From Candidatus Delongbacteria bacterium (GTDB taxonomy: Bacteria; UBA4055): a stretch of 64,000 nt of DNA. The notes beneath the pieces were generated by a model. That model did not search any database, was not told the origin of the DNA, and saw only the letters and a program-made list of their open reading frames with translations. Location: NCBI GenBank assembly GCA_036721445.1, contig DAIMKZ010000001.1, positions 1,175 to 65,174 on the forward strand, given 5' to 3'. Both the position numbers and the translations under genes were made by a program. Shown in pieces: positions 31,944 to 51,717 of this stretch (position 1 is its first letter; each line of letters begins with the position of its first letter).

Positions 31944-32431
31944 GTAATATCCTGAATTTTTTTTAATGTTGAAGTTGTTGATCTGAAAGGAATTAGAGGG
32001 ATGACTGAAACTCTGCCCCCGTTCATCTTCACGATATCGGAACCGACAATATATTTCTTGCTGGAAGGATCTGTTTCATCAGGGTCATAATCGCCGCCTT
32101 TTATAAGAATGTCAGGAACGATGTTTTCAATAAGTCCCAGAGGCGTGTCCGTTCCGAATATGACAGTATAGTCAACCGCTTTCAGAGAATCGATCAAATA
32201 CGCTCTGTCCGACTCACAGTTAACAGGCCTGCCGTCACCTTTAAGTCTTTTTACAGACAGGTCGCTGTTCACACCTACAATGAGTATTTCCCCGAGCTTC
32301 TTCGCGCTGTTAAGATACTCTGCGTGACCTCTGTGAAGGATATCGAAAACCCCGTTCGTAAAAATTATACTTTTCCCGGACTTCCTGAGCTCCGGAACAG
32401 TTTTAAACAGCTCTTTTTCGGACAGTATCAT
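31940..32431 (-). CDS. hldC: D-glycero-beta-D-manno-heptose 1-phosphate adenylyltransferase (stand-alone HldE domain II-like)
   Basis: 'FTNGVFDILHRGH' cytidylyltransferase-fold HxGH motif of RfaE domain II, 163 aa. Confidence 0.7.
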   Translation of the reverse strand: MILSEKELFKTVPELRKSGKSIIFTNGVFDILHRGHAEYLNSAKKLGEILIVGVNSDLSVKRLKGDGRPVNCESDRAYLIDSLKAVDYTVIFGTDTPLGLIENIVPDILIKGGDYDPDETDPSSKKYIVGSDIVKMNGGRVSVIPLIPFRSTTSTLKKIQDIT

Positions 32432-33442: not shown

Positions 33443-34053
33443 GGTGTTTTTCCTTTTTTTACATTACCGGCTTTATCAACAAAATAAAACTCGGACGACA
33501 ATCTGAACATTTGCTCATCTCCCCTGGAATTTCCGAAACATATGATCCTGTACTCCGGATCATAGAACTCCGACTCTTTTATCCTGATTACTTTTTCGGA
33601 GTAATTGCAGTTCTTTCTTTTCAGCCTTCCTGTTAATATCCCGTGCTCTTTTTCTGTCTCGGTGCAGATGCAACCGTCAAAACCGCGTTTCTTTGAAACA
33701 TAATCCATATAAATATCGGGTGATGCCGTTACTACTATTATTTTACAGCCCAGTTTTCTAAAACTGTCTATTTTTGCTTTGACTTTGGGGAATATATGAA
33801 GCTGCCTGTTGAAACTTTCAAGTTTTTCACTGATTTCGCCTGTGCTCATACCCTTATAGATCAGTTCAAAACTTCTCTTTTTTGCTTCATCTCTCGTAAT
33901 GAATTTAAAATAATATTCTACCACGATGAAAATAAGGTCGGGTAGCGATTTGAAAAATTTCTTATAACCCGAGAAAAACAGCAGTGACCTGAAATAAGAA
34001 TCTCCCTTTATATAAGTACCGTCAAAATCTGTAAATACAATCCTGCCGCTCAA
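33436..34053 (-). CDS. HAD-IB family phosphatase (candidate GmhB-function analog)
   Basis: Motif I 'FTDFDGTY', 'VVTASP', C-terminal 'FGNSRGD'. Sits between the CDP-alcohol transferase and the heptose kinase. Confidence 0.5.
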   Translation of the reverse strand: MSGRIVFTDFDGTYIKGDSYFRSLLFFSGYKKFFKSLPDLIFIVVEYYFKFITRDEAKKRSFELIYKGMSTGEISEKLESFNRQLHIFPKVKAKIDSFRKLGCKIIVVTASPDIYMDYVSKKRGFDGCICTETEKEHGILTGRLKRKNCNYSEKVIRIKESEFYDPEYRIICFGNSRGDEQMFRLSSEFYFVDKAGNVKKGKTPW

Positions 34054-34067
34054 AACTTCGCTCCGTA

Positions 34068-35630
34068 TTATTTTACTTCAACAAATATCTTCTTACTCCT
34101 GCTTCCGTATGAAATTATATTTCCTTTTACTACACTAATTCCCTTAAGATCGCTGTCAGGAGCTGTTAATACCCTTTTTATCGCATTTTGGATACTTCCC
34201 TGGAAAACAGATTTCTCAATATCTACAGTATATATAAGATCCTTCCCTATTTTATTTGCTATCATAAAGATATTTCCGTTTTTTGAGGATAGGTTCTTAA
34301 TATAGAATTCGCTCTTGATCTTAAAACTGCTCTGAGAGAGAAGATCCGTTGTATTTTTGAGTTCCGCGACAGGACAGAAATAAAGATGTCCTGAATAAAT
34401 ATAATCGTTGATCAGAAGATATTTTACTGAATTGAATTCTGCCGCACCGAGAGTGGAAGAAGAGGATAATCCTGTTGAAAACTCGTTCGTAATATGAATT
34501 TTCTTTGACAGCATCAGGCTGTCCTTCTCTATCTCAATCACTTTATTTATGCTATCGTCGATAAGATAAATATGCTCTCCGATATTTTCGATATCCTTGA
34601 CATTGGTAATAGATTCCGGAAGATCGCAGTAGAATTGCACGGCTCGATCATTATCTATGCTGTTGTAGACGTATAATCTTGACAATCTGTTTTTTCTGGA
34701 TGCAGCTATTATTATCCTGTCATCAGTGCTTGTTATACCCGCTATTCTCAGATCGTCATTTTTCTCGATATTTATCAGATCATACGACTGCCATTTGATT
34801 GCTTCAGCATTGCTTTCAAATTTATTTTTTACAAGATCGAGAAAATATGGAGAGATCAGGAACATAAGCACTATCATGAATATACTGCTTATATAATTGT
34901 ATACTTTTCTGTGACCCGGAGCAAGGCTGAAGAGATAATCGATCAGGGAATAAAGAGTTACGCTGATAACAAGGAACGAAATAAGGAACGTTACCAGATA
35001 GCTTATTTTAAAATCGATGTAGTTCAAAGACAACATCATGGCAGAAAGTACAACCATAAGTCCTATAATGGTATAGAGGAGCCCTCCTTTTATTTTGAAA
35101 ATATAAACTACCAGAAGGTTCAGCGCAATGCCTGTCATTAGTGAGTAGATCAGAAAGCGTCCGGGTATAACCCCGCTGTCCTGGATTGTGTTTATCATCA
35201 GCGCGTACATAAGCAGGTACTGGCCTCCGAACTGAACTCCTCCCTTCAGCTTTCCCGAAAACCTGGCGCCCATCACAGTGCCTGAAAAAGAAGCGAATAT
35301 TCTTACATAGGCGACAACAATATCCCTGAAAAAAAAGAATACTATGAACCATATGGGGAAAAGTCCGTGATAAGCCAGCGCGAAAAAATAAAAGAATCTC
35401 GATATGGAATCCGAGAGAGGATCAAGTATCTTTCCCAGATCGGTAACCAGCTTGTCTCTTCTCGCAACATATCCGTCGATTATATCTGATACTTCGGAAA
35501 GGCTCATTATAACATAAGCAATGATAAGAAGTTTGATATTACCGCTGAATATCAGAAGAACTCCTATTATCGTGAGTATTATCCTTGATACGGTTATCGC
35601 GTTGACCTTATTATAGTACTTTGAATCCAA
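34068..35630 (-). CDS. CDP-alcohol phosphatidyltransferase family protein with about 270 aa C-terminal extramembrane domain
   Basis: Exact D-x2-DG-x2-AR-x8-G-x3-D-x3-D motif ('DIIDGYVARRDKLVTDLGKILDPLSD'), about 8 TMs, then a soluble C-terminal domain of unknown fold. Confidence 0.7.
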   Translation of the reverse strand: MDSKYYNKVNAITVSRIILTIIGVLLIFSGNIKLLIIAYVIMSLSEVSDIIDGYVARRDKLVTDLGKILDPLSDSISRFFYFFALAYHGLFPIWFIVFFFFRDIVVAYVRIFASFSGTVMGARFSGKLKGGVQFGGQYLLMYALMINTIQDSGVIPGRFLIYSLMTGIALNLLVVYIFKIKGGLLYTIIGLMVVLSAMMLSLNYIDFKISYLVTFLISFLVISVTLYSLIDYLFSLAPGHRKVYNYISSIFMIVLMFLISPYFLDLVKNKFESNAEAIKWQSYDLINIEKNDDLRIAGITSTDDRIIIAASRKNRLSRLYVYNSIDNDRAVQFYCDLPESITNVKDIENIGEHIYLIDDSINKVIEIEKDSLMLSKKIHITNEFSTGLSSSSTLGAAEFNSVKYLLINDYIYSGHLYFCPVAELKNTTDLLSQSSFKIKSEFYIKNLSSKNGNIFMIANKIGKDLIYTVDIEKSVFQGSIQNAIKRVLTAPDSDLKGISVVKGNIISYGSRSKKIFVEVK

Positions 35631-35705
35631 TTTTCCGCCGTTTATCTTTATATCAGATAAGAATATAATAAATTATAATTGTATTGTCATCATAAATGTT
35701 GAATC

Positions 35706-36830
35706 CTAGTCCGCAATTTTCACCAGTTCCTTCTCTATACTTTCCCAAACAAGTTCTGATTCAGCTTTTATACAATTGCTCTTATATGAATTGTATTTTC
35801 TATCATCATTAAGCAGACCGTTTATCTTTTCAGCTATAACATCTTCATTTTCCGGATCAGTAACTTCACCGACGTTGTAACCTTTAATATATCTCGACAT
35901 TTCAGGAAAATCGGATGCTATCTGCGGGATTTGAGCCTGTATCAGTTCGAACATTTTATTCGGTGCGGAATAGTAATAGCTTTTACCATAATTCTTTATC
36001 AGGCACAGACCGATATACGCGCAGACTGTGTAATTGATAAGTTCACTGTGCGGAAAAGGACCTGCAAAATATACCCGGTGACCTATGCGGAGCTTAGCTG
36101 CGAGATCTCTGAGCCTGTACTTTTCCGATCCGTCTCCGATAAGAACAAGAACGGCGCACTCATCAACCTTTACGAACGATCTGATAATTCCGTCCAAACC
36201 GTTGTTTACAAGAAAATGACCCTGATACAGAACGATCCTCTTGGCCTTATCGATACCTGCAGTATCGTGAAGAATATCCTTGTTTGCAGGGATATCTTTC
36301 TTTAACGGCAGGTTCGTAAAGACACGAACTTCCTTAATCCTGTATATACTTTCGAGCTCTTTCGCTATAGGTGCTGATACTGTGATGACACTTTTTGCGC
36401 CTTTAATAAAGGCCTTTTCATAACTGGTCCAGAATTTTTTAGCCGCGGGTCTGTCCTCGACCTGCGAATTTCCGTGCCAGAATTCATGAGCGTCGTAGAT
36501 ATAAGGTTTCCTTTTGAGTCTCGACGCAAAAAAAACAGGAAGCAGAGGAAAGATGTCGTGAGAATAGAGGACCGTGCATTTTTCGAAAATAAGAACCAAG
36601 AAAAGTTTTACCCAGAATATCATAATGTTAAGGACAAGCGGCAGAGTTTTAAAAAGTCTGATCCTCTCGTTTTCTATCCCTTCCCAGCCTTTAAGTTCAT
36701 CATTATCATACCTGATACCTATTACTTTGACCTCATAGCCGTTTTTCAAAAAGCTACGCGCGACCTTGTACCCCCTATACTCATGGTGAAGCGTGTCAAA
36801 AACAGCGAATATTATCTTTTTTCTGATCAA
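35706..36830 (-). CDS. glycosyltransferase family 4-like (GT-B)
   Basis: 374 aa GT-B architecture. C-terminal half has an EX7E-like region ('GEVTDPENEDVIAEKI'). Confidence 0.55.
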   Translation of the reverse strand: MIRKKIIFAVFDTLHHEYRGYKVARSFLKNGYEVKVIGIRYDNDELKGWEGIENERIRLFKTLPLVLNIMIFWVKLFLVLIFEKCTVLYSHDIFPLLPVFFASRLKRKPYIYDAHEFWHGNSQVEDRPAAKKFWTSYEKAFIKGAKSVITVSAPIAKELESIYRIKEVRVFTNLPLKKDIPANKDILHDTAGIDKAKRIVLYQGHFLVNNGLDGIIRSFVKVDECAVLVLIGDGSEKYRLRDLAAKLRIGHRVYFAGPFPHSELINYTVCAYIGLCLIKNYGKSYYYSAPNKMFELIQAQIPQIASDFPEMSRYIKGYNVGEVTDPENEDVIAEKINGLLNDDRKYNSYKSNCIKAESELVWESIEKELVKIAD

Positions 36831-37615
36831 TTAAGTATATCTTTATTTAATCTGTAGAATCCCTTAAAATTTTCAGGTTTAAGCCAGTAATAGCTCAATC
36901 CCTGCGTGTCTGATTTAACTACTTTATTTTTTGATTCCGACGCGTAAATAACATTAAAACTGTCTGGGGATGAAACATCCGTTATCATTCCGAACATTCC
37001 GTCATTCAATACTACCAGATCTCCGTTCCTGATATCGTTTTTCTTTAACTTTGATGAATTTTTTAGTATTTCTTTTGAATCCATGTAACCTTTGAACTTC
37101 ATCTTGTTCTCTGCAGCGGAATTTCTCCATATAGCACATATAAGATGTGAATTGTCCGCAGCTCTGTCTTTATCCGGATCGGCACCGAGCCTGAATTTCA
37201 GGCCCTCATATTTTGACGCCCACTTATTGACCGAAACCGCGAAATTTAGAGGTACGGATACGGTCGGATCTGCGCTTTTCTGTTCGAAATTTGAGGCGAA
37301 TTCATCTTCGAACTGTGCGGTCATTTCATCCTCTCCGTCAAAATACTCGCCGTCAATTCTGTTCTGTTCGGCATCGTCCGCCGCCGGATCGAATTTCTGT
37401 TCTTTTTCCGAGGCAGCAGACGCTTTTTTATCTTTAAGATTTTCAATTTTTTCACCGGTCCTGACATTTTTATCATGGTCATAGAACATAAAATACCAAA
37501 CAGCAGCTGCTGCAATTACAAGAATAATCAGTGCCGTGAAAATATCGAAAATGCGGGCAAAGAAACCTCCTTTGCTTTTCTTACTGCTTTTTTTCATTCT
37601 GCTTTTTTTTGCCAT
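36827..37615 (-). CDS. membrane-anchored hypothetical protein
   Basis: Basic N-terminus, one TM, acidic low-complexity linker, about 130 aa C-terminal globular region. ATGA-coupled to the GT4 gene. Confidence 0.4.
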   Translation of the reverse strand: MAKKSRMKKSSKKSKGGFFARIFDIFTALIILVIAAAAVWYFMFYDHDKNVRTGEKIENLKDKKASAASEKEQKFDPAADDAEQNRIDGEYFDGEDEMTAQFEDEFASNFEQKSADPTVSVPLNFAVSVNKWASKYEGLKFRLGADPDKDRAADNSHLICAIWRNSAAENKMKFKGYMDSKEILKNSSKLKKNDIRNGDLVVLNDGMFGMITDVSSPDSFNVIYASESKNKVVKSDTQGLSYYWLKPENFKGFYRLNKDILN

Positions 37616-37642
37616 AATCTTTCATCCCTGTTTTTACATAAT

Positions 37643-38221
37643 TCATATCAGATATACAAAGAGCTGAAAACATCCTATTATGAACCCGAGCACTCCGCCG
37701 AAATAAGTTACATATGCAAGCTGTGTTCTCGTTACGCTCAGGATTATCTCTTCAAGCCTTTCAAGTGAAAATTCTCTTACTTTTGTTTTTACCGTCTCCC
37801 TGATGTCAAGTTCTTCTAGTACTGCGGGAAGCTCTTTATCCATCATTTCGATCACTTTATCAGAGATCATCTTTTTAATATCGGATGTTATGAAGGACGA
37901 GAGAATTCCGAACTGACCGTACATATTTTCGAGAGCATCGTATATCTTTCTTCTTACAGATTCTTTTCTGAATAGTTCATGAAGCGAATCGTTCGTCAGA
38001 AGGTGATCCCCGACAGTGTTCCCAATTTTCTCGGCAAGATTATCGTGCTCTTTGGGTATTACCCCCGGAGTAAAAGGAATCCTGAGCCCGAAGATGATCA
38101 CAGGATTGAACGGCCTGAAAAGCATCTTTATTGCGAGATAGTTGGTAAGCAACCCGATCAGCGCACCTATCAGCGGTGGCAGTATATACTTCAGAATTTC
38201 AATACTCAATTCACACCTCAT
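37643..38221 (-). CDS. small membrane protein (possibly DUF445-like)
   Basis: N-terminal TM 'LPPLIGALIGLLTNYLAIKMLFRPF' and C-terminal TM. Weak resemblance only. Confidence 0.3.
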   Translation of the reverse strand: MRCELSIEILKYILPPLIGALIGLLTNYLAIKMLFRPFNPVIIFGLRIPFTPGVIPKEHDNLAEKIGNTVGDHLLTNDSLHELFRKESVRRKIYDALENMYGQFGILSSFITSDIKKMISDKVIEMMDKELPAVLEELDIRETVKTKVREFSLERLEEIILSVTRTQLAYVTYFGGVLGFIIGCFQLFVYLI

Positions 38222-38948
38222 TTGTTTTTACAGCTACTGCCTGATACCTGTCAAGTTTCTTGTTCCGCGTCTGCTTTCTGCTCAGGAAAGGAAGCAGTTT
38301 TACTAATTTAAATCCGTTTTGTTTTAGAAGCTCTTTTATCTCTGTTGGTGAATAGCCTCTTTCATAATGAGTTTCCTCAAAAGTGACGAACCTTCCGTCC
38401 TTTTCCTTTATAAAGAACTTCATCCTGCATTCCAGAATAAGAGTGTCCATATCGAATTCGGAATCATAGGAAATAAAAAAATCTTCAGTCTCCTCGATCT
38501 TAACCCCTTCCCATTCATTTACAAGACCGTAGATCGAATTAAAATCGAACAGGAGAAGACCGTCTTCATTTAAAACTTTATTACAGCCTCTGAAAAACGA
38601 TAACAGATCTTTGGTTTTTTTAAGGTAATTCACAGTATCGAAAACTGATATCAGATTATCATATTTTTTGTCCGATCTGAAATTTTTCATATCGCCGACG
38701 GCAAATTCGCTTCCGGGCAATTTTTTCCTGGAAATATTCACCATTTCACGGCTGATGTCGAAACCTGACACTTTGTAACCAAGCTGCCTGAAGTAGACAA
38801 GCTCCTCGGAAGTACCGCAGCCGGCATCCAGTATATTTGTCCTTTTTCCTCCTGACGACAAGATAAGATCATCTAGACAGTCAACGAGCTCCTGATAATC
38901 AAAAGGGCTCATTATAAGATCGTAATACTTCGCAATTCTGTCAAACAT
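38211..38948 (-). CDS. class I SAM-dependent methyltransferase
   Basis: 'ILDAGCGTSE' motif I and 'FDIS' motif II. Confidence 0.65.
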   Translation of the reverse strand: MFDRIAKYYDLIMSPFDYQELVDCLDDLILSSGGKRTNILDAGCGTSEELVYFRQLGYKVSGFDISREMVNISRKKLPGSEFAVGDMKNFRSDKKYDNLISVFDTVNYLKKTKDLLSFFRGCNKVLNEDGLLLFDFNSIYGLVNEWEGVKIEETEDFFISYDSEFDMDTLILECRMKFFIKEKDGRFVTFEETHYERGYSPTEIKELLKQNGFKLVKLLPFLSRKQTRNKKLDRYQAVAVKTNEV

Positions 38949-39739
38949 TACTGCTCATCCTTTAAGTGTTTATTTATTATTCTGAACATATCCCCGAAAA
39001 CGGCCGGTTGCGCGCATATAATGCACCCGTTGTTTAGAAAACCGCCTTCTCCCCTAAAGTCACTTACAGCTGCTCCCGCTTCCTTCGCGATTACAACTCC
39101 TGCGGCCATATCCCAAGGTGACAGCCACCCTTCAAAGAATCCGTCGAACCTTCCCGCAGCAACATAGGCAAGATCAAGTGCCGCACTTCCCATTCTGCGT
39201 ATTCCTGAAGATGAAGCTAGTATTTCCGACAGACAGGTAAAATATTTATCTCTCTTACAGGGTCTTCTGAATGGCATACCGGTGGCTATCAGACATTGAC
39301 TTATTACTTTAGGGGACGATACCTGAATTTTACTTCCGTTCAAAAACGATCCTCCTCCCTTAAAGGCATGGAAAAATTCATCTGAGTAAGGGTCATATAT
39401 TACACCTGCCTGAATATCGCCTTCCGTATAAAAACCTATTGAAACGGCGCTGTGCTTCAGTCCGTGTATAAAATTGGTCGTTCCGTCTAGAGGGTCGATT
39501 ATCCACAGATCGTTTTTGGGCTCAAAGCTGCCGCCGTCCTCCTCGGCCAGAAAGTTATGGTCCGGAAATTCCTGCAGGATGATATTTTTTATCATATCCT
39601 GACATTTGACATCTGTTTCTGTTATGTAATCCGAAGGTGATTTTATTGTAATTCCGGAAGGCTCGGATTCTCTGATCACTTCTCCTGCTGCGCGTGCCGC
39701 CTTAACTGATATCTGAATTATTTTCGAAAGAGCTACCAT
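38948..39739 (-). CDS. suhB: inositol monophosphatase family protein
   Basis: 'WIIDPLDGTTNF' and 'DPYSDE' metal-binding motifs. Confidence 0.8.
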   Translation of the reverse strand: MVALSKIIQISVKAARAAGEVIRESEPSGITIKSPSDYITETDVKCQDMIKNIILQEFPDHNFLAEEDGGSFEPKNDLWIIDPLDGTTNFIHGLKHSAVSIGFYTEGDIQAGVIYDPYSDEFFHAFKGGGSFLNGSKIQVSSPKVISQCLIATGMPFRRPCKRDKYFTCLSEILASSSGIRRMGSAALDLAYVAAGRFDGFFEGWLSPWDMAAGVVIAKEAGAAVSDFRGEGGFLNNGCIICAQPAVFGDMFRIINKHLKDEQ

Positions 39740-40455
39740 TTTACTTTTTTCCTGTTCAGATAATGCTGAGCTTCTTTATGTCCCAGCCTTGCAGCTTTCT
39801 TTGTGTAGAAAAGATTTTTATCTCTCTGTTTCATTGTTTCATAAACGATCCCGATATTGTAATATGCATCTGCGTGATTTTTATCAAGCTCTATCGCTTT
39901 CATATAATGATTCAACGCCATTTCCATGAAACCTTTAGCATATAAAGACGCTCCGATATTGTTATTGATGTCGGCGGAATTCGGGTCGAGTTCAAGAGCT
40001 TTCCTGTAATACGCAAGAGCCTCATCGTAATCTTTCAGAACATGATATACACCTCCGAGTCCTTTATATGCCGCCGGCGAACCGGGATTTAGTTCCGCGA
40101 CCTTCAGATAGGATTCAACTGCATGGTTATAGTAACCTTTTTTACGGTATGCTATGGCTTTGTTAAGATAAGCCTCGTGATAATCCTTATTGACGGCAAT
40201 AGCCTGATTGTAATAAATGATCGCCTTATCATAATCACCCAGCTTCACATGGCAGACGCCGAGATTATAATACCCCTCCGCAAATCCGGGATTTTTTTTC
40301 ACTGATTTCTCAAAATGAGATATAGCCTGAATTACCATACCTTTCTGATAGGCTTCAATTCCGTCTGCGAAGAAATTATCAGCTTTTACTTCGGCAGCTG
40401 ACAGCATCAGTATCAAAAATAAATATTTAAGCATTGTCTCTCCGTTTAATTTCAA
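39733..40455 (-). CDS. secreted TPR-repeat protein
   Basis: Signal peptide and about 6 canonical TPRs (e.g. 'AEGYYNLGVCHVKLGDYDKAIIYYNQAIAVN'). Confidence 0.6.
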   Translation of the reverse strand: MKLNGETMLKYLFLILMLSAAEVKADNFFADGIEAYQKGMVIQAISHFEKSVKKNPGFAEGYYNLGVCHVKLGDYDKAIIYYNQAIAVNKDYHEAYLNKAIAYRKKGYYNHAVESYLKVAELNPGSPAAYKGLGGVYHVLKDYDEALAYYRKALELDPNSADINNNIGASLYAKGFMEMALNHYMKAIELDKNHADAYYNIGIVYETMKQRDKNLFYTKKAARLGHKEAQHYLNRKKVKW

Positions 40456-44169: not shown

Positions 44170-45267
44170 ATGAAAATACCTTTTGTTGATCTTAAAGCTA
44201 ATTATCTTTCAATAAAAGACGAGATCGATAACGCTATAAGCAGCGTAATTAACCGGACGGCTTTTATAAAAGGAGAGGAGCTGGAGCAATTCGAGAAGAA
44301 CTGGGCAGAAATGTGCGGTGCGGCTTTTTGCGCCGGAACATCGAACGGAACAGCTTCACTTGAGCTTATACTGAGATCTTTAAATATTGGTCCCGGAGAC
44401 GAAGTTATATGTCCGTCGCATACATTCATAGCGACCGCTGAAGCCATAGTGAACTGCGGTGCGAAACCGGTATTCGCCGACTGTCACGACAGTACGGCGC
44501 TGATAGACGCGAACGAGGTCAGAAAAGCTTTGACAGATCGAACGAAAGCTGTCATAATTGTCGATCTTTACGGTCAGCCGGCAGATCATGATGCTGTAGT
44601 AGAAGTAGTGGCTGATAAGGAAATTACAGTTATTCAGGATGCTGCCCAGTCGCATCTTGCGGAATACAAGAAAAAACCCGTCGGCAGCTACGCAAAAGTG
44701 ACGTCTTTCAGTTTCTACCCAGGCAAAAACATGGGAGCTTTCGGGGATGCGGGAGCAGCCGTTACGAACGACGAAGAACTTTTTAAAAAAATAAAAATGC
44801 TTTCTGACCACGGAAGAACAACAAAATACGAACATCAGTTCCCCGGTACGAATGCAAGAATGGATAATCTGCAGGCCGCGATCCTCAAAGTAAAAATGAA
44901 ACACCTTTCAGAATGGAATGAAAAAAGACGAAAGATAGTAAAAAAATACAAGAACGCTCTGGAAGACCGTATCGCTTTTATTGACGAGGAATCTTTTGCA
45001 CGATCGGTCTATCATCTGTGCGCGGTAAGAACACCGTACAGAAAAGATCTGATCAAATTCCTTGAAGAACATGAAGTTTCAACCGGAATACATTATCCGA
45101 TACCTCTTCACATGCAGCCCGCTTTCAAAGAGCTCGGATACAATGCGGGAGATCTTCCAAGATCTGAGAAAATATCTGAAGAGGTCATGTCGCTTCCTGT
45201 ATTCCCTGAAATGACAGACGAACAGACGGATTTTGTAATTGATCAGGTAAAAGAGTATTTCAGATAA
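44170..45267 (+). CDS. DegT/DnrJ/EryC1/StrS-family sugar aminotransferase (ArnB/perosamine-synthase-like)
   Basis: 'SFSFYPGKNMGAFGDAGAAVTND' PLP-lysine motif. GGGAG sits 7 nt upstream of the ATG at 44170. Confidence 0.8.
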   Translation: MKIPFVDLKANYLSIKDEIDNAISSVINRTAFIKGEELEQFEKNWAEMCGAAFCAGTSNGTASLELILRSLNIGPGDEVICPSHTFIATAEAIVNCGAKPVFADCHDSTALIDANEVRKALTDRTKAVIIVDLYGQPADHDAVVEVVADKEITVIQDAAQSHLAEYKKKPVGSYAKVTSFSFYPGKNMGAFGDAGAAVTNDEELFKKIKMLSDHGRTTKYEHQFPGTNARMDNLQAAILKVKMKHLSEWNEKRRKIVKKYKNALEDRIAFIDEESFARSVYHLCAVRTPYRKDLIKFLEEHEVSTGIHYPIPLHMQPAFKELGYNAGDLPRSEKISEEVMSLPVFPEMTDEQTDFVIDQVKEYFR

Positions 45268-45277
45268 TGAGGCTGTT

Positions 45278-46159
45278 ATGATTTCAAAACCAGTATCACT
45301 AGTACTTCCGGCTTATAACGAGGAAAAAGCTATAGCTGCTTCTCTGGACAGGATCATCTCTTTCATGAGAGATCATTTTGAAGACTTTGAAGTTATTGTC
45401 GTGAATGATGCTTCGACAGATAACACAGCCGGTGAAGTTTCAAAATTCTCTGAAGTAACACTTGTGTCTCACCCCTATAACAAGGGAAACGGATCAGCTG
45501 TGAGAACAGGTATCAGGAATGCTAAGAAAGAATTCGTTGTTATGATGGACGCCGACGGACAGCATGAAATAGCTGACATAGAAAAGATCGCTGAGCTGCT
45601 GGGCGTTTATGACTGTGTTGTCGGAGCCAGAACTGCGTCTTCAGAAGGCTCTTTTCACAGGAATATCGCAAATGTTTTTTATAACTGGCTTGCAAGCTAT
45701 GTTACAAATGTCAGGATCGAAGATCTGACAAGCGGTTACAGGGGATTCAAAACCTCTGTGATCAAAAAATTCCTTTATATGTTCCCAAACGGATTTTCTT
45801 ACCCGACCACTTCCACTCTGGCAATAATTAAAGCCGGGTATAATCTCAAGTACTGCCCGATACATACAAAAAAGAGGATAGGCAAAAGCAAGATCAGGAT
45901 ATTCAGGGACGGCTTCAGATTTCTTCTGATCATAATTAAGATCACCATGCTTTTCTCTCCTCTAAAAGTTTTTCTACCCGTCAGCCTTATTTTTGTACTT
46001 GGAGGTCTGGCTCATATGTTCTATAAAATAATCCTTCTTGGAGCAAGGTACACGCAGTTCTCTATCTTTCTGATAAGCGTGGGCGTAATAATCTTTCTGA
46101 TAGGGCTGCTTTCTGAGCAGATATCCACACTGCGTTACGATAAAGTCGAAGAGGACTGA
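45278..46159 (+). CDS. GT2 polyprenol-phosphate glycosyltransferase (DPM1/ArnC-like) with C-terminal TM hairpin
   Basis: 'VLPAYNEE', 'VVNDASTDNT', 'DADGQH' (DXD) and two C-terminal TMs. Confidence 0.75.
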   Translation: MISKPVSLVLPAYNEEKAIAASLDRIISFMRDHFEDFEVIVVNDASTDNTAGEVSKFSEVTLVSHPYNKGNGSAVRTGIRNAKKEFVVMMDADGQHEIADIEKIAELLGVYDCVVGARTASSEGSFHRNIANVFYNWLASYVTNVRIEDLTSGYRGFKTSVIKKFLYMFPNGFSYPTTSTLAIIKAGYNLKYCPIHTKKRIGKSKIRIFRDGFRFLLIIIKITMLFSPLKVFLPVSLIFVLGGLAHMFYKIILLGARYTQFSIFLISVGVIIFLIGLLSEQISTLRYDKVEED

Positions 46160-46164
46160 TAAAA

Positions 46165-47247
46165 ATGATCCACATCGTTATCGGAACAAAAGCTCAGCTT
46201 ATCAAAATGGCCCCTGTCATGAAGGAATTGAGCCTGAGAGGGACAGACTACAATTACATCTCGACCGGTCAGCATAAAGAAACTATCGAAGACATTCTGG
46301 ATAATTTCAAGATCAAAAAACCTGACATTCAGCTTTATTCCGGAAAAGACATCACTTCAGTTCTGTCTATGATAATCTGGTCTATGAGAATACTTACCCG
46401 ATCGCTTTTTAGAAGAAAAATGATTTTCCGGAATGATAAAAAAGGAATAGTTCTTGTTCACGGGGATACCCTCAGCACGGTTATCGGTGCTCTGATGGGA
46501 AAATTTTCCGGGCTTAAGGTCGGTCATGTCGAATCAGGCTTAAGGTCATTTAATATTTTTCAGCCTTTCCCGGAAGAAATTTTCAGAAAGATCACTTTTA
46601 GGCTCTCAGACATGATGTTCTGCCCCGGAGAATGGGCTGTTAATAATCTCAGGAAATATCGCGGCATGAAGATCAATACGCATTTGAACACTCTTTACGA
46701 TTCTCTGAATTATGCCGCTCCCGCGATAGGACTCATCAATGATGTGCAGATACCTCGTGACGAATTTGCCGTTGTCACTCTTCACAGATTCGAGAATGTA
46801 AAGAACAAAGAAATGCTTGAAAAAATAATTGATCTTCTCGTTTTAGTCTCGAAAAAGATCAGGCTTTTATTCATTCTTCATAATATTACAGAGAAAAAAC
46901 TGATACGGTACGGCCTGATTGAAAAGCTTCGGAACGATCCTTCAATTGAGCTCAGAAAAAGATATGACTATTTCAGATTCATCAAGCTGATAAAAAATGC
47001 CGAGTTCGTAATATCCGACGGGGGAAGCAATCAGGAGGAATGTTCCTATCTTAAAAAACCCGTCCTTCTGTTCCGCAATGTCACTGAAAGAAATGAAGGC
47101 CTGGGTCAGAATGCAGTGATCTCAAAATTCGATCAGAACATCATCATGCATTTTGTTGAAAACTACAAAGAACTTAAAGGACCGGAAACAGATGAAAGTA
47201 TAAAACCCTCGGCGATCATAATAAACAATTGCATTGACTTTATCTGA
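46165..47247 (+). CDS. UDP-N-acetylglucosamine 2-epimerase-like protein
   Basis: 'VIGTKAQLIKMAPV', 'VHGDTLST', 'HVESGLRS' and 'SDGGSNQEE' correspond to WecB/Epimerase_2 motifs. Confidence 0.65.
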   Translation: MIHIVIGTKAQLIKMAPVMKELSLRGTDYNYISTGQHKETIEDILDNFKIKKPDIQLYSGKDITSVLSMIIWSMRILTRSLFRRKMIFRNDKKGIVLVHGDTLSTVIGALMGKFSGLKVGHVESGLRSFNIFQPFPEEIFRKITFRLSDMMFCPGEWAVNNLRKYRGMKINTHLNTLYDSLNYAAPAIGLINDVQIPRDEFAVVTLHRFENVKNKEMLEKIIDLLVLVSKKIRLLFILHNITEKKLIRYGLIEKLRNDPSIELRKRYDYFRFIKLIKNAEFVISDGGSNQEECSYLKKPVLLFRNVTERNEGLGQNAVISKFDQNIIMHFVENYKELKGPETDESIKPSAIIINNCIDFI

Positions 47248-47286
47248 GGGGTTATATATCATTGGCCGAATATAAAAACGGATAAG

Positions 47287-48510
47287 ATGAAAACACTAGT
47301 TCAGCTATATTTGAAAGACCTGTTGAGAAATAAAATGCTCGGCCTTATGGTTCTACTTGTTCCGATAATATTTTATCCCCTTATTTACTGGGGAATAAAC
47401 CAGTTCCTTATGGTCAAAACCGGTTTTTCGGACAGCAGGAAACTTACACTTTCCTATACTATTGAACAGGACGAGTTTTTACAGCTGGAAGATTCTCTGA
47501 TGGCAGTAAAGAACCTGATACTTGAAAGAACCGATAATTCAGACACAGGTAAAGATAGGATGCAGCTGATCGTTTCCAATAAAGGAGGACTGCCTCTTTA
47601 CTCCGTAATTATGGACAGCTCAAATTCGAATCACAAAGAGTTTTATCCCAGGATCGAGAATAAGCTTATCGGTTTTTATGAAACGAAAAAAAAAGAGTTA
47701 ATAGAAAATAAAGGATTCGAGAATGAATATTTTGACGTATTTCAAATTGAAACCAGAAATTCGGAAGGAGAGCATGAGATCATAAGAAAAATGCTCTCGC
47801 TCCTTATACCTCTGTTATCCGTTATCTCAATAATATCAGCTGCCGCCGCCGCGTCTGTTGAAATTACATCCGGCCAGTCGGAAGACAGAACGGCAGAGAC
47901 ATCACTGACACTTCCTCTGAAAAGGGAGAGCGTTATTATTTCGAAACTGCTGACCGTTAATATTTACGCATTGCTTGCAGGAACTGTCAATTTTGTTTTC
48001 CTTGTAGTTTTCATAATTACCATCTTCAGTTCCCTGATAACAGGAGTCTCGGAAGATATGACCGGGTTCAGCTGGAGTGAAATTTTCAGTCTGAATATTA
48101 TTATTATCGCACTGGTCTCGCTTCTTCTGACTTCCTTCTTCGTAAGCGTTATTTTTATTACAGCTTCAGGCTTTGCTTCTAAAAGAAAAGAGGGAGGTGT
48201 CATGATATCGCCTTTTACGGCTTTTCTGACATATCTTCCTCTTGTCCTTGTCATACCTGCGGTAGATCCCAATATTTTCATAGCTGCGACGCCTGTTCTG
48301 AACATATCCTTCTGTCTGAAACTGCTGATCGAGAACAATACCGACTTGATTTTCATGGCCGAAACAGCTCTATTTTCGATCCTGTGGCTTGTGATAATAT
48401 ATAAACTTTTCTTCCCGTTCCTCGTTGAAGAGGAAGTGCTTCTGGGTTATTCAGGCTCATCCATAACAAAAAAAATAAAAACAAAGTGGTCAAGATGGAA
48501 GAAACGATAA
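47287..48510 (+). CDS. ABC-2 type exporter permease
   Basis: N-terminal TM, large extracytoplasmic loop, then 5 TMs. Immediately upstream of an ABC ATPase. Confidence 0.55.
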   Translation: MKTLVQLYLKDLLRNKMLGLMVLLVPIIFYPLIYWGINQFLMVKTGFSDSRKLTLSYTIEQDEFLQLEDSLMAVKNLILERTDNSDTGKDRMQLIVSNKGGLPLYSVIMDSSNSNHKEFYPRIENKLIGFYETKKKELIENKGFENEYFDVFQIETRNSEGEHEIIRKMLSLLIPLLSVISIISAAAAASVEITSGQSEDRTAETSLTLPLKRESVIISKLLTVNIYALLAGTVNFVFLVVFIITIFSSLITGVSEDMTGFSWSEIFSLNIIIIALVSLLLTSFFVSVIFITASGFASKRKEGGVMISPFTAFLTYLPLVLVIPAVDPNIFIAATPVLNISFCLKLLIENNTDLIFMAETALFSILWLVIIYKLFFPFLVEEEVLLGYSGSSITKKIKTKWSRWKKR

Positions 48511-49256
48511 CTATAAAAGAACTGAACAAGGAATTTTATGATCCTCAGAGAGGAACTGTAAAGGCTGTGAACAATATAAGTTTTACCGCCTATAAAGGCG
48601 AAGTGTTCGGACTTTTGGGACCGAACGGCGCGGGAAAGACTACGACTTTAAGAATGATGGCTACTCTGATGCAGCCGGATTCAGGTTATATCAGCATCGC
48701 GGGATTCAGCACCTCGGAAAACCCTGAGGATGTCAGAAGGTCTATCGGGTACATGTCTTCGAATACAGCTTTATATCCAAGGCTGTCGCCAAGAGAGATC
48801 ATAAGATATTTTGCCGAGCTTAACGATTATCCTGAGAGCGAGATAACTTTAAGGGTCGAACAGCTCATAAGCTATTTTGGTATAGGTGAATATGCTGACA
48901 CTTATTCTGAAAAACTTTCAACAGGTATGAAGCAGATAACTTCTATCGCAAGAACGATCGTTCACGATCCAGCGGTTCTTATCCTTGATGAACCCAGTTC
49001 CGGACTTGATGTAATCGTTTCTCAGAAGATACACAGCTACATAAAAGACCTTAGAGATCAGGGCAAAACTATTATATTCTCTTCCCATAATATGGGGGAA
49101 GTGGAAAAGATCTGCGACAGAATAGGGATCATTAACAACGGAAAACTGCTTGCGGTAGGAACAATAGAAAACCTTCGCGAGCAGACAGGAGAATATTACA
49201 TGGAGAATATTTTCATCAAAGTAGTAAACGAATTTGAAAAAAAGACGGTTTTATGA
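48495..49256 (+). CDS. ABC transporter ATP-binding protein
   Basis: Walker A 'GPNGAGKTT', signature 'LSTGMKQ', Walker B 'ILDEPSSGLD' and H-loop. Confidence 0.85.
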   Translation: MEETITIKELNKEFYDPQRGTVKAVNNISFTAYKGEVFGLLGPNGAGKTTTLRMMATLMQPDSGYISIAGFSTSENPEDVRRSIGYMSSNTALYPRLSPREIIRYFAELNDYPESEITLRVEQLISYFGIGEYADTYSEKLSTGMKQITSIARTIVHDPAVLILDEPSSGLDVIVSQKIHSYIKDLRDQGKTIIFSSHNMGEVEKICDRIGIINNGKLLAVGTIENLREQTGEYYMENIFIKVVNEFEKKTVL

Positions 49257-49441
49257 AGATAAAGAGCAGAAATAAAACAACAATGCTGAAAGAGGATACA
49301 TCCCCGCTTTCATTTATTAAAGGAACTCCTGTACTCCCTGCTCTATCAAAGAAGAATGTGGACGAAATAATCGATCTGCTTGAAGAACTTGACGCGGAAA
49401 GCAGATTTTACAACGAGGAAGACAGTACTGAAACTGAATAA
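49253..49441 (+). CDS. small acidic hypothetical protein (62 aa)
   Basis: ATGA-coupled to the ABC ATPase stop. Acidic C-terminus. No homology is recognisable by eye. Confidence 0.3.
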   Translation: MKIKSRNKTTMLKEDTSPLSFIKGTPVLPALSKKNVDEIIDLLEELDAESRFYNEEDSTETE

Positions 49442-49453
49442 AGGACGAAAATA

Positions 49454-50191
49454 ATGAGACTCGAAAATTTTACACATATAATAGACCTGGAAAAAGTGGA
49501 TTCTACAAATTCATATCTGAAAAAAAATTCCGATGACCTGAATACTGGTACAGTTCTTTTCGCAAAAGATCAGACAGGAGGTAAGGGCAGGCTCGGCAGA
49601 AGCTGGTACGGCGAACCGGGTAAAAGCATTTTCTGTTCATTCCTGATCAAAAATATTTACGAGAGTTCAGACGCCATAAGGCTGTCATTCCTGTTTTCAC
49701 TGGCAGTAAAAATGATGCTCACAAAATACATCGACTCCGGCAGAATAGTTCTGAAATGGCCCAACGATGTGACGGTATCAGGAAAAAAGATATGCGGAAT
49801 ATTATCCGAATATTCAAAAGAATGCGTAATAATCGGAATCGGAATAAACATTATGGATTTCATACCTAAGGGAAATATCTCTTATCCTTACACTTCAGTC
49901 GAATCAGAAGCAGTTGATCCGCCTGATATTGAAATAATTAAAAATGAGCTCGTCGAATCTGTTAACATGGTGTACAGAAGGTACTGTACGAATACAGCGA
50001 GCGATATACCTCTGATATGGTTCAGGGAAGCTGATATAAAAGGAAGGCCTGTTACTGTCAGCATTGAAGGAAAAGCTACAAGCGGTGTTATAGATTCAAT
50101 AGACGACCTGGGATGTCTGATAATTAATAACGGTCACGGGTTAAAGGAGAGAATTTTTTACGGGGATGTGATATACAATGATCAATTTTGA
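49454..50191 (+). CDS. birA: biotin--[acetyl-CoA-carboxylase] ligase (catalytic domain only, no HTH)
   Basis: 'GGKGRLGRSW' (GRGRxGRxW) and 'KWPNDV' motifs. Confidence 0.75.
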   Translation: MRLENFTHIIDLEKVDSTNSYLKKNSDDLNTGTVLFAKDQTGGKGRLGRSWYGEPGKSIFCSFLIKNIYESSDAIRLSFLFSLAVKMMLTKYIDSGRIVLKWPNDVTVSGKKICGILSEYSKECVIIGIGINIMDFIPKGNISYPYTSVESEAVDPPDIEIIKNELVESVNMVYRRYCTNTASDIPLIWFREADIKGRPVTVSIEGKATSGVIDSIDDLGCLIINNGHGLKERIFYGDVIYNDQF

Positions 50192-50819
50192 TTTTGCCAG
50201 AAAAGAAATGATCTCTAATCAGCTAAAAAAAAGAGGTATAGCTGATAAAAGAGTTCTAAAAGCCTTCCAGGAAATTCCCAGACATATCTTTGTTCCCGAG
50301 GACAATATTGAGCACTCATACGACGATTCCGCTCTGCCGATAGGATACGGACAGACTATATCTCAGCCTTATATTACTGCCCTCATGACACAGATGTTGA
50401 GACCTCTTGAAGATGAAGTCATTCTTGAGATAGGTACAGGTTCCGGATTCCAGTCCGCGTTACTTTCAAAACTCTGTAAATATGTAGTATCTGTCGAAAG
50501 GATCCCCGAACTTGTCGGGTTTTCCAGAAACAATCTTCAAAAACTGAAAATAGAAAACATACAGGTCTTTGTAGGAGACGGAACTCTGGGTTGGAAATCT
50601 GAAGCGCCTTATGACGGAATAATTGTTTCTGCCGGAGCAAAAGAAATTCCTCAGTCACTTATAAATCAGCTTAAACCGGGAGGAAAGCTGATAATACCTC
50701 TTGAGCACGAGAATTACCATAAGCTGTTCAGAATAAAAAAAGAGGAAACCGGCTTTATTAAAGAGGAGATAATCGACTGCATGTTCGTACCTCTGATAGG
50801 GAGAGGGTATGATGAATAA
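50178..50819 (+). CDS. pcm: protein-L-isoaspartate O-methyltransferase
   Basis: 'GYGQTISQPY' and 'LEIGTGSGFQSALL' motifs. Confidence 0.85.
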   Translation: MINFDFARKEMISNQLKKRGIADKRVLKAFQEIPRHIFVPEDNIEHSYDDSALPIGYGQTISQPYITALMTQMLRPLEDEVILEIGTGSGFQSALLSKLCKYVVSVERIPELVGFSRNNLQKLKIENIQVFVGDGTLGWKSEAPYDGIIVSAGAKEIPQSLINQLKPGGKLIIPLEHENYHKLFRIKKEETGFIKEEIIDCMFVPLIGRGYDE

Positions 50820-51717
50820 ATATTTTATTTTATTCTTAAAAGGGATCGGTGTCGGTATCGCAAATATTATTCCCGGTGTTTCAGGCGGAACGATAGCATT
50901 GATCACGGGAATATTTGAAACTCTTTTAAATTCTATAAAATCTTTTGACATTAAGGCTGTAAAACTCATTTTCAGCGGAAAATTTAAAGATTTTACAGAA
51001 CACACGAACCTTTACTTTCTGATCTCGGTATTCGGAGGAGCAGGTACGGGAGTTTTCGCACTGTCCTTTCTACTGGGTTCACTTTTCGAGAATTATCCGA
51101 AATACGTATGGTCTTTTTTCTTCGGGCTGATCCTGGCATCTGTGTATTTTGTCGCGAAAAAGATCAGTAAATGGAATGCGGGCGTAGTATTATCTCTAAT
51201 ACTCGGAACCTTAATAGCCTTACTCATCATTAATGTATTTGATCCGGCATCGGAAAATTCATCCTATCTATATTTATTCATCTGCGGTATCGTGGCTACA
51301 TGCAGTATGATACTGCCGGGTCTCTCGGGGTCGTTCGTGCTGATCCTTCTGGGTAATTACGAGCTTGTAATGATCCAGTCGGTCAAAACAGTGAACTTAC
51401 ATGTTCTTATACCTGTTTTCCTTGGTGCTGCAGCCGGAATAATTGCTTTTTCTCATGTCCTTTCATGGGTATTTAAAAAATTCAGGGATCTTACTATAGC
51501 CCTTCTTTCAGGATTCATTTTGGGTTCTTTAACTTTATTGTGGCCTTGGAAGGATGCTGTCACAAAAGTATTCGAGAACGGAAAAGAAAAAGTGATAGGC
51601 TACAATTATTTTTTACCAGAATCGTTTTCATTGGAAGTGATTCTCGCAGTATCATTGATGATTGCCGGGGTTATTATAATATGGATATTGGAGAAATATT
51701 CTATTGATAAAAACTAG
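50809..51717 (+). CDS. DUF368 family membrane protein (PopT-type undecaprenyl-phosphate translocase family)
   Basis: Internal repeat with 'IPGVSGG' and 'LPGLSGS' motifs, about 8 TMs. Confidence 0.65.
   Translation: MMNKYFILFLKGIGVGIANIIPGVSGGTIALITGIFETLLNSIKSFDIKAVKLIFSGKFKDFTEHTNLYFLISVFGGAGTGVFALSFLLGSLFENYPKYVWSFFFGLILASVYFVAKKISKWNAGVVLSLILGTLIALLIINVFDPASENSSYLYLFICGIVATCSMILPGLSGSFVLILLGNYELVMIQSVKTVNLHVLIPVFLGAAAGIIAFSHVLSWVFKKFRDLTIALLSGFILGSLTLLWPWKDAVTKVFENGKEKVIGYNYFLPESFSLEVILAVSLMIAGVIIIWILEKYSIDKN

Follow-up and report, generated by a model that had tools for sequence, protein, structure and literature searches.

A glycosyltransferase and epimerase gene pair of a Candidatus Delongbacteria genome as the probable donor arm of a periplasmic glycosylation system

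A 64,000-nucleotide stretch of contig DAIMKZ010000001.1 from a Candidatus Delongbacteria bacterium (hereafter the window; GC content about 41%) carries a tightly packed gene array that includes a membrane-anchored GT2 glycosyltransferase gene and, directly after it, a gene for a WecB-like nucleotide sugar 2-epimerase. These two genes (45278-47247), perhaps together with the DegT-family sugar aminotransferase gene that precedes them, probably constitute the cytoplasmic donor arm of a three-component periplasmic glycosylation system. Systems of this type (GtrA/GtrB/Gtr-type; CsbB/YfhO; GacI/GacL) have been reviewed as a widespread mechanism (see also PMC11127046), and the logic of glycosylation from a lipid-linked donor is well established; of such a system the window holds the donor arm only. 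A preliminary description of this DNA had proposed a larger, dedicated 'Arn-like system' of eight parts, with an exporter and a carrier recycler. Its gene list and coordinates are all borne out by open reading frame (ORF) and family calls (Table 1), and its general idea of a lipid-linked sugar built inside the cell and used outside is sound, the pair being found beside GT-C and PF03706 genes in relatives. The eight-part system itself is not upheld, as only the GT2/epimerase linkage is conserved across 69 loci.

The GT2 protein is 100% identical to one from an NCBI metagenome-assembled genome of Candidatus Delongbacteria. It aligns over its full length, C-terminal membrane region included, with ArnC (9hwj, residues 4-273) and GtrB (5ekp, residues 6-283), and hydropathy analysis places three hydrophobic segments within its residues 213-275. 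This full-length likeness and the hydrophobic segments together mark it by architecture as a polyprenol-phosphate glycosyltransferase, so that the earlier assignment to a DPM1/ArnC-like family, in the sense of an ArnC/GtrB/DPMS-type architecture, holds. D91-A-D93 of the GT2 aligns with the DAD motif of ArnC. ArnC is the best solved match, yet it scores only 59 bits, and the GT2 reaches the cut-off of none of the relevant equivalogs: AglJ, its top NCBIfam match and aligned end to end, scores 112 against a cut-off of 325, PpgS 71 against 370, and ArnC (NF007986) 65.5 against 529. The GT2 is predicted from these comparisons to be an undecaprenyl-phosphate glycosyltransferase that makes a lipid-linked monosaccharide donor, and to be a core component of the system.

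The epimerase gene begins 5 nt past the GT2 stop codon. Its product narrowly misses the TIGR00236 equivalog (199.1 bits, cut-off 210.15) because its C-terminus is divergent, and it matches the solved WecB/MnaA structures with 136 bits (E=1e-38), as compared with only 105 bits for WbpI-type structures. The catalytic and UDP-binding motifs align with the same motifs of 5enz and 4neq, and D101 (HGDT), E123 (HVESG), E137/E138 (PFPEE), H207 (HRFEN) and Q290-E292 (QEE) are invariant among 25 homologues from many phyla that share 52-73% identity. Conservation within the subfamily is unusually high, at 52-60% identity among Delongbacteria, Gammaproteobacteria, Bdellovibrionota, candidate phyla radiation (CPR) bacteria and archaea. 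The protein is thus predicted to belong to a distinct, widely spread WecB-like subfamily that would supply the nucleotide sugar, as the second core component. All WecB catalytic motifs are kept, and the linkage to GT2 crosses phyla.

Eighty epimerase loci, picked via the subfamily alignment, were taken from contigs representing one genome per species; their six-frame ORFs were searched with the window proteins, and their neighbours were clustered de novo. Synteny of the full array is confined to Delongbacteria loci L013-L020 (L numbers designate individual loci), where argD and a GT9 gene come after the array. The counts given here refer to the 69 loci outside this syntenic block and, except where a shorter distance is named, to genes within 10 kb of the epimerase, with GT2 orthologues counted at 190 bits or above and GT-C proteins filtered by their transmembrane (TM) segments. 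A GT2 orthologue is found in 27 of the 69 loci, in 15 of them within 300 bp of the epimerase. Multi-TM GT-C-like proteins occur in 29 loci (24 within 3 kb), PF03706 proteins in 13, type IV pilin genes in 14 and TagF-like glycerophosphotransferase genes in 12; the ABC permease, the ABC ATPase and DUF368 are each found in none. An earlier jackhmmer-based count of 32 loci with a GT-C protein was inflated by proteins consisting of TPR repeats only, as was exposed when the GT-C profile matched the window TPR protein at 39733-40455; filtering by TM number and length left 29. Within the 27 loci that hold a GT2 orthologue, 18 also hold a GT-C-like protein, 19 a GT-C or PF03706 protein and 11 a pilin gene, and the partner families recognized by Pfam are PMT_2, PF03706, Pilin/N_methyl and GtrA.

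GT2 and epimerase genes abut or overlap each other in members of Cloacimonadota, Methylophilaceae, Methylococcaceae and Syntrophales and in Desulforhabdus and Thiobacillus. Cloacimonadota possess a bare GT2 and epimerase pair; Methylobacillus has the order pilA, GT-C with TPR, GT2, epimerase, which Methylococcaceae share except that a small additional ORF stands behind pilA; in Syntrophales the order is GT2, epimerase, PF03706 and GT-C with TPR, and beyond these the other strand carries pilA, one further ORF, pilC and pilB. In a divergent Delongbacteria metagenome-assembled genome (MAG; L049) the pair has PF03706, more GT2 genes, a pilin-like gene and a GT-C of the PMT_2-like kind as neighbours, and the ABC pair, BirA, PCMT, DUF368 and DegT are all missing around it, so that the context of the pair is not fixed even within the phylum. 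Two complete-looking glycosylation sets flank the pilin-like gene of this MAG (L049:3354-16983). One consists of GtrA, a short GT2, a canonical WecB, a short-chain dehydrogenase/reductase (SDR) and the PMT_2-like GT-C; the other consists of a methyltransferase, the subfamily epimerase, PF03706, two GT2 genes, one of which is the orthologue, and further multi-TM proteins.

The GT-C proteins with TPR repeats form a single neighbour cluster (c2) of about 650 residues, in which an N-terminal DD motif is conserved in 24-25 of 27 members and whose gene often lies, in several loci, just downstream of pilA. Loci that combine a pilin gene, a GT-C of TfpW-like architecture, GT2 and epimerase, sometimes with PF03706, pilB and pilC as well, are found in Methylophilaceae, Methylococcaceae and Syntrophales (L031:6489-11095, L045:6117-11086 and L071:3361-12011; also L037, L039 and L058), and they have the look of an as yet undescribed cassette for pilin glycosylation with a lipid-linked donor of the N-acetylhexosamine (HexNAc) type. 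By analogy, the acceptor in many relatives is probably the type IV pilin. TfpW itself is the pilin arabinosyltransferase of Pseudomonas aeruginosa Pa5196/PA7 and draws on polyprenyl-phosphate D-arabinofuranose made by DprE1/E2-type genes (bioRxiv 10.1101/2020.04.19.049825). The cluster c2 proteins resemble it, as compared by its published description only, in size, in the DD motif, in the TPR tail and in the location of the gene downstream of pilA; unlike the TfpW system, the donor genes here are GT2 and a WecB-like epimerase. The arrangement is confined to relatives (L031, L045, L071 and others), as the window has neither a pilin gene nor a TfpW-like protein. A pilin acceptor encoded in the window was considered and rejected, because a six-frame regular expression search for class III signal peptides returned no relevant motif. 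In the literature searched, no account was found of a cassette of GT2 and WecB-like epimerase, or of its tie to TfpW-like genes.

The aminotransferase gene that precedes the pair raises a separate question. Its start codon is best set at ATG 44170, which suits the 365-aa gene calls of relatives better than GTG 44164. The closest solved relatives of the protein are 7b0d (354 bits, about 50% identity), for which no paper was found in the literature searched, and QdtB (3frk; 333 bits, about 47%), a dTDP-3-keto-6-deoxyglucose 3-aminotransferase; DesV (304 bits), WlaRG next to it and WbpE (247 bits) follow, and ArnB (127-147 bits), PglE (103) and PseC are all far weaker. The lysine that binds pyridoxal phosphate (PLP), in the motif FSFYPGKN, is invariant, and the score against the ArnB equivalog NF008658, 197.8 bits, does not reach its cut-off of 631. 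On its sequence, the enzyme is a member of the C-3 sugar aminotransferase clade (QdtB/DesV/WbpE-like) and not of the C-4 ArnB clade. The label 'ArnB-type' that it had been given therefore falls, given ArnB structures at 127-147 bits as against 333-354 for QdtB and 7b0d and an equivalog score far under the cut-off; among the subfamilies that had been put forward, ArnB, PglE and Per, the first two are set aside, and the best fit is the QdtB/WbpE-like C-3 clade.

The distribution of this aminotransferase bears on whether it acts with the pair. The gap between DegT and GT2 is 10 nt, and their adjacency is kept in every syntenic Delongbacteria locus; orthologous DegT genes stand next to the pair only in those loci (L013-L020). 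Only 6 of the 69 loci have any DegT gene at all within 10 kb of the epimerase, none of them orthologous, with scores of at most 265 bits as against 552-778 for orthologues. A metagenome scan, which describes the clade and not the orthologue, listed as matches 80 relatives with 41-50% identity, and no Delongbacteria orthologue was among them. Neighbours of these listed relatives include hexapeptide acetyltransferases (34 of 80), Gfo/Idh/MocA proteins (29), SDR proteins (15) and FdtA (10), sets that are WbpB/E/D-like and FdtA/QdtB/QdtC-like cassettes, and the GT2 and epimerase matches near them reach at most 78 and 105 bits, respectively. Pfam annotation of the 64-kb window finds no Gfo/Idh/MocA protein, SDR dehydratase, cupin isomerase or hexapeptide acetyltransferase, and the window has no 3-oxidase, isomerase, N-acetyltransferase or 6-dehydrogenase for a pathway involving DegT. 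The aminotransferase may be a lineage-specific addition to the GT2/epimerase pair. Outside Delongbacteria, the only locus with the order DegT, GT2, epimerase is in an archaeal MAG (L055:182-11074), where a gene for an STT3/AglB-type oligosaccharyltransferase lies upstream; its DegT (200 bits) and GT2 (87 bits) are non-orthologous.

A pathway can be proposed in which the epimerase would turn UDP-GlcNAc, or a 3-amino derivative of it, into a manno-configured UDP-HexNAc, as its homology and conserved catalytic residues suggest. DegT, if involved, would aminate C-3 of a nucleotide 3-keto sugar, itself presumably the product of an oxidoreductase or isomerase whose gene lies beyond the window. The GT2, judged by its architecture and its full-length similarity to ArnC and GtrB, would then move the sugar from UDP to undecaprenyl phosphate (Und-P) at the cytoplasmic face, after which the lipid-linked monosaccharide would be flipped and used by a periplasmic GT-C enzyme. 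In relatives, the partners that adjoin the pair and might perform these last steps are TfpW-like or PMT_2-like GT-C proteins and flippase candidates of the PF03706 or GtrA type. In the window, the sole candidates for transferase and flippase would be the DUF2723 GT-C and the PF03706 protein encoded at 847-4772.

These two genes, whose presence at that location was noted in the preliminary description and is borne out by Pfam, lie about 40 kb from the GT2/epimerase array, and the start codon of the PF03706 gene overlaps the stop codon of the DUF2723 gene by one base. The DUF2723 protein is the only GT-C among window membrane proteins with at least four predicted TM segments, and the order of a DUF2723 gene followed by a PF03706 gene mirrors the partners found beside the pair elsewhere. 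For the PF03706/UPF0104 family, which is also found as the C-terminal domain of AglD and has PMT/STT3-like enzymes as neighbours, a flippase role in glycosylation pathways has been predicted (PMC5898192). A functional pairing of the two genes with GT2 and epimerase is possible by this analogy, with the DUF2723 protein as candidate periplasmic transferase and the PF03706 protein as candidate flippase. Physical linkage gives a different picture. A TMEM260-like match is absent from the 80 epimerase loci, and no Epimerase_2 protein or GT2 shown to be orthologous is present in five DUF2723 neighbourhoods, so that a conserved linkage to DUF2723 is not supported. That description had itself held that a lack of conserved linkage to DUF368 or DUF2723 would speak against its proposal, and at the level of physical linkage this lack is what the survey found.

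In four of the five neighbourhoods, from four other lineages (L095:10001-19079, L096:10001-19024, L097:9077-18130 and L098:8090-16834), DUF2723 has conserved companions of its own: a PF03706 gene or a GT2 gene for about 345 aa is followed by DUF4837, PurE, an SDR epimerase and a second GT2, this one of about 238 aa, often with a methyltransferase. It may be these companion genes that actually provide the donor for DUF2723 enzymes of bacteria. The fifth neighbourhood, from Cloacimonadota, has only VanZ and PF03706 flanks; the trio of VanZ-like, DUF2723 GT-C and PF03706 genes found in the window (426-4772) thus recurs in a Cloacimonadota MAG (L094), which also has the GT2/epimerase pair, on a different contig (L048). 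The GT2 beside DUF2723 in LCP-89 and Calditrichaeota was rejected as an orthologue of the window GT2, since likeness is limited to the N-terminal GT-A region (25-26% over about 90 aa), and cluster c2 was likewise rejected as the DUF2723 family of the window, since BLASTP likeness is confined to the TPR region and the two are different GT-C families. On the opposite strand after the window PF03706 gene lies a gene for a T2SSE-family, PilT-like ATPase (4769-6184).

The nine ORFs of the array (44164/44170-51717, plus strand) are co-directional, and each is separated from the next by at most 39 nt or overlaps it, in the order DegT, GT2, WecB-like 2-epimerase, ABC-2 permease, ABC ATPase, a 62-aa ORF, BirA, PCMT and DUF368. 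Upstream lie genes for a U32 peptidase, a class V aminotransferase, a TPR protein and an IMPase; the 3' end is marked by a convergent argD-like gene, and the downstream flank comprises ArgD, an LTXXQ-like protein, one GT9, an SLT-domain protein and GreA. A terminator scan found no plus-strand terminator-like sites between the array genes, which is the one informative result of the promoter and terminator scans, their counts being otherwise not above those of shuffled sequence. Neither an Rfam scan nor a tRNA scan turned up an RNA gene in the window.

The permease gives no match to PF01061, the ABC2_membrane family of Wzm and TagG; no solved structural relative was found for it, and the best NCBIfam match, NF041647, a model for fusions of ABC permease and CPBP protease, covers the N-terminal permease part only (151 bits, cut-off 435). 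The ATPase has no Wzt-type C-terminal domain in its 256 residues, and its top NCBIfam models, DrrA, RbbA, GldA and NodI, are all under their cut-offs. With a permease of the PF12679 family, a bare DrrA/GldA-like ATPase domain and linkage in 0 of 69 loci outside the phylum, the proposal of a Wzm/Wzt- or TagGH-like exporter is not sustained. The 62-aa ORF is also a called gene in related contigs (L001 and L004). DUF368, whose gene overlaps the PCMT stop codon, scores 285.7 against the equivalog NF052564 (cut-off 400) and is a member of the DUF368/PopT-type translocase family, not an assigned equivalog. It had been described as lying about 1.5 kb downstream of the exporter genes; it does start 1.55 kb past the ATPase stop, and the 62-aa ORF, BirA and PCMT, omitted from that description, fill the interval. 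Its linkage to GT2 and epimerase is found within Delongbacteria only, L015 and L016 lack it at the corresponding place, and with BirA and PCMT intervening the functional tie that had been proposed is not retained; DUF368 is most likely a general undecaprenyl-phosphate recycler that is not dedicated to this locus. The ABC pair, the 62-aa ORF, BirA, PCMT and DUF368 are probably co-transcribed neighbours, best explained as inherited by synteny within Delongbacteria and not as dedicated parts of the system.

Table 1. Genes of the array and the distant candidate partner genes in the window
Feature	Position	Strand	Family match or other evidence
TMEM260-like/DUF2723 GT-C, C-terminal TPR region	847-3819	+	PF11028, 203.6 bits
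PF03706/UPF0104 protein (MprF flippase-domain family)	3819-4772	+	PF03706, 138 bits
DegT-family PLP sugar aminotransferase	44170-45267	+	PF01041, 375.6 bits
Membrane-anchored GT2	45278-46159	+	PF00535, 101 bits
WecB/MnaA-like non-hydrolysing UDP-HexNAc 2-epimerase	46165-47247	+	PF02350, 184 bits (cut-off 30.6)
ABC-2 family permease, large loop after TM1	47287-48510	+	PF12679, 45.5 bits
ABC ATPase, bare nucleotide-binding domain, 256 aa	48486-49256	+	PF00005
62-aa ORF, acidic C-terminal tail, no family assignment	49253-49441	+	Overlaps ATPase stop by 4 nt
BirA biotin protein ligase without repressor domain	49454-50191	+	TIGR00121, 133.7 bits (cut-off 83.1)
PCMT, protein-L-isoaspartate O-methyltransferase	50178-50819	+	NF001453, 248.6 bits (cut-off 188)
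DUF368/VCA0040-like polyprenyl-phosphate translocase family	50809-51717	+	PF04018, 276.6 bits (cut-off 26)

Several observations weigh against a donor arm limited to two or three genes, and other explanations have to be set beside it. The array holds no flippase candidate or GT-C gene, nor is one next to it, so that the downstream steps rest on analogy with relatives; the substrate pathway of DegT is incomplete within the window; and the epimerase subfamily occurs without a GT2 orthologue in 42 of the 69 loci, some of which have TagF-like and TagD-like genes (Halieaceae), which implies that the subfamily is not exclusive to glycosylation systems of this kind. The array is also tightly packed, its layout persists to 68% epimerase identity within the phylum, and in Delongbacteria loci L015 and L016 the permease gene overlaps the epimerase stop codon; because the transporter is translationally coupled to the epimerase in these two loci, it may have a lineage-specific role. 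The same features would suit a model in which DegT, GT2, epimerase and ABC-2 transporter form one dedicated system, the transporter exporting or flipping an Und-P-linked amino sugar, DUF368 recycling the carrier and the DUF2723 GT-C attaching the sugar to lipid A or protein. Nine co-directional genes without an intergenic plus-strand terminator-like site, and with no flippase candidate other than the transporter, speak for such a model. It is nevertheless improbable, given that linkage of the ABC pair and DUF368 is absent from all 69 loci outside the syntenic block, L049 having the GT2/epimerase pair without them, that the DUF368 slot is empty in L015 and L016 and that birA and PCMT, both housekeeping genes, stand in between. 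The permease and ATPase families are moreover not those of known glycan exporters of this type (PF12679 and not PF01061; no Wzt-type C-terminal domain), and the pair is found in none of the five DUF2723 neighbourhoods.

A second model, in which GT2 and epimerase feed a polymer assembled in the cytoplasm and containing N-acetylmannosamine (ManNAc), for instance O-antigen, capsule or a teichoic-acid-like glycan, with the GT2 acting as an ordinary glycosyltransferase on an oligosaccharide linked to undecaprenyl diphosphate (Und-PP) and not as an Und-P monosaccharide synthase, is unlikely, as the similarity of the GT2 to ArnC and GtrB runs from end to end and takes in the membrane segments that mark polyprenol-phosphate synthases, and as loci with a GT2 orthologue commonly have GT-C, PF03706 and pilin genes as neighbours. 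A standard O-antigen or capsule locus, an alternative already raised in the preliminary description, is not what the flanks of the array reveal: by Pfam annotation, Wzx, Wzy, Wzz, an initiating phosphotransferase and a GT cluster are all absent from them, and no WecG/TagA gene lies near the array. In favour of the polymer model, in Halieaceae (12 loci) and in further loci of mixed glycan content the epimerase subfamily adjoins TagF-like and TagD-like genes, distant homologues of the GT2, at about 50% identity, are found at polysaccharide loci that also hold Wzx-type and GT4 genes, and the window has GT4, GT9 and heptose-pathway genes elsewhere. A third possibility concerns DegT alone and is compatible with the donor-arm explanation of GT2 and epimerase, namely that the aminotransferase is unrelated to the pair and serves a separate C-3 amino-sugar pathway (WbpB/E/D-, FdtA/QdtB/QdtC- or GnnB-like, the last for lipid A GlcN3N) whose remaining genes lie elsewhere in the genome. 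This is a possibility of some weight, though still the less probable course for DegT: no orthologous DegT adjoins the pair outside Delongbacteria, the few other DegT genes near the epimerase score low (at most 265 bits), the listed relatives adjoin acetyltransferases, Gfo/Idh/MocA proteins and FdtA and not close matches to GT2 or epimerase, and the partner genes are missing from the window; set against this are the 10-nt gap to GT2, kept in all syntenic Delongbacteria loci, and the repetition of the order DegT, GT2, epimerase beside an STT3 gene in the archaeal L055. A joint pathway would also be chemically plausible, because WbpE-type aminotransferases and WbpI-type 2-epimerases act in one pathway, the synthesis of UDP-ManNAc3NAcA.

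Comparison with known systems is consistent with a donor arm built from GT2 and epimerase. As in the three-component systems, a membrane-anchored GT2 would provide a polyprenol-phosphate monosaccharide, and in relatives the pair adjoins PF03706 or GtrA and GT-C genes; unlike those systems, the donor arm here has a dedicated WecB-like epimerase and, in this lineage, a C-3 aminotransferase, the flippase and GT-C genes lie outside the locus, and the usual flippase candidate of relatives is PF03706 and not GtrA. The Arn pathway, which places 4-amino-4-deoxy-L-arabinose (L-Ara4N) on lipid A, likewise brings together an aminotransferase of the DegT family and a glycosyltransferase of the ArnC kind that acts on Und-P. 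It differs in that the ArnB and ArnC scores are 198 against 631 and 65.5 against 529, that DegT is a C-3 and not a C-4 enzyme and that an epimerase is present instead; Pfam annotation of the window ORFs finds no ArnA, ArnD, ArnE/F or ArnT. With the ArnB and ArnC equivalogs far under cut-off and these other components absent from the window, the term 'Arn-like' does not suit the module.

The WbpA/B/E/D/I and FdtA/QdtB/QdtC pathways offer a closer parallel for DegT, which is nearest QdtB, DesV and WbpE, and WbpI-type enzymes are among the solved homologues of the epimerase (105 bits). In contrast to the WbpA/B/E/D/I pathway, the epimerase here is nearer WecB/MnaA (136 bits), and the window lacks the 3-oxidase, isomerase, N-acetyltransferase and 6-dehydrogenase. 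The archaeal dolichol-phosphate hexose synthases AglD and AglJ resemble the present case in that AglJ is the top GT2 match and PF03706 lies near the pair in 13 loci; the AglJ score is nonetheless 112 against a cut-off of 325, and GT2 and PF03706 are here separate genes about 40 kb apart. Like Wzm/Wzt and TagG/TagH, the ABC transporter consists of two genes, an ABC-2-type permease and a separate ATPase, but unlike them it has a PF12679 permease with a loop after TM1, no Wzt domain and no linkage to glycan genes outside the phylum.

Some loci and genes encountered in the course of the analysis touch on other glycans and on secretion. In Halieaceae/Cellvibrionales (L065:8047-12400, L072, L075, L078 and L083) the epimerase gene lies between dxs and a gene for a TagF-like CDP-glycerol glycerophosphotransferase, with a TagD-like cytidylyltransferase near, an arrangement that suggests a teichoic-acid-like glycerol-phosphate glycan in marine Gammaproteobacteria. 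A minus-strand run in the window (31940-39739) encodes a cytidylyltransferase and a PfkB kinase (a split RfaE-like pair), a HAD phosphatase, a 520-aa CDP-alcohol phosphatidyltransferase, a GT4, a protein without Pfam match, a DUF445 protein, a methyltransferase and an inositol monophosphatase, and may serve the synthesis of heptose and of an inositol-phosphate lipid or glycolipid. Also on the minus strand (20306-23824) is a gene for a 1172-aa protein with InhA-like MAM and Por_Secre_tail domains, a type IX secretion cargo, from which it follows that the organism has a type IX secretion system (T9SS).

A more far-reaching version of the donor-arm explanation would join the separate parts of the window. 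The pair would make an Und-P-linked ManNAc-type sugar, 3-aminated by DegT in Delongbacteria; the VanZ/DUF2723/PF03706 trio would use it to O-glycosylate envelope proteins in Delongbacteria and Cloacimonadota, and the same cassette would serve TfpW-like pilin glycosylation in Proteobacteria and Syntrophales. In this full form the scheme is speculative and, on balance, doubtful. To our knowledge no Und-P-linked donor of the ManNAc type, 3-amino or otherwise, has been described, and the function of bacterial DUF2723 was not found to be addressed in the literature searched; if the scheme were true, it would provide the first function for bacterial DUF2723.

For the window, the consequence is that an apparent eight-part 'Arn-like' system with exporter and recycler shrinks to a module of two or three genes plus syntenic neighbours. 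If GT2 and epimerase are indeed the donor arm of a periplasmic glycosylation system, they would represent a portable donor module that is spread over many bacterial phyla, CPR bacteria and archaea. Cultured carriers of the cassette include Novimethylophilus kurashikiensis La2-4 (L037), Zhongshania spp. (L038 and L052), Stagnimonas aquatica (L036) and Desulforhabdus sp. TSK (L061), and in some of these the type IV pilin would be the probable acceptor.

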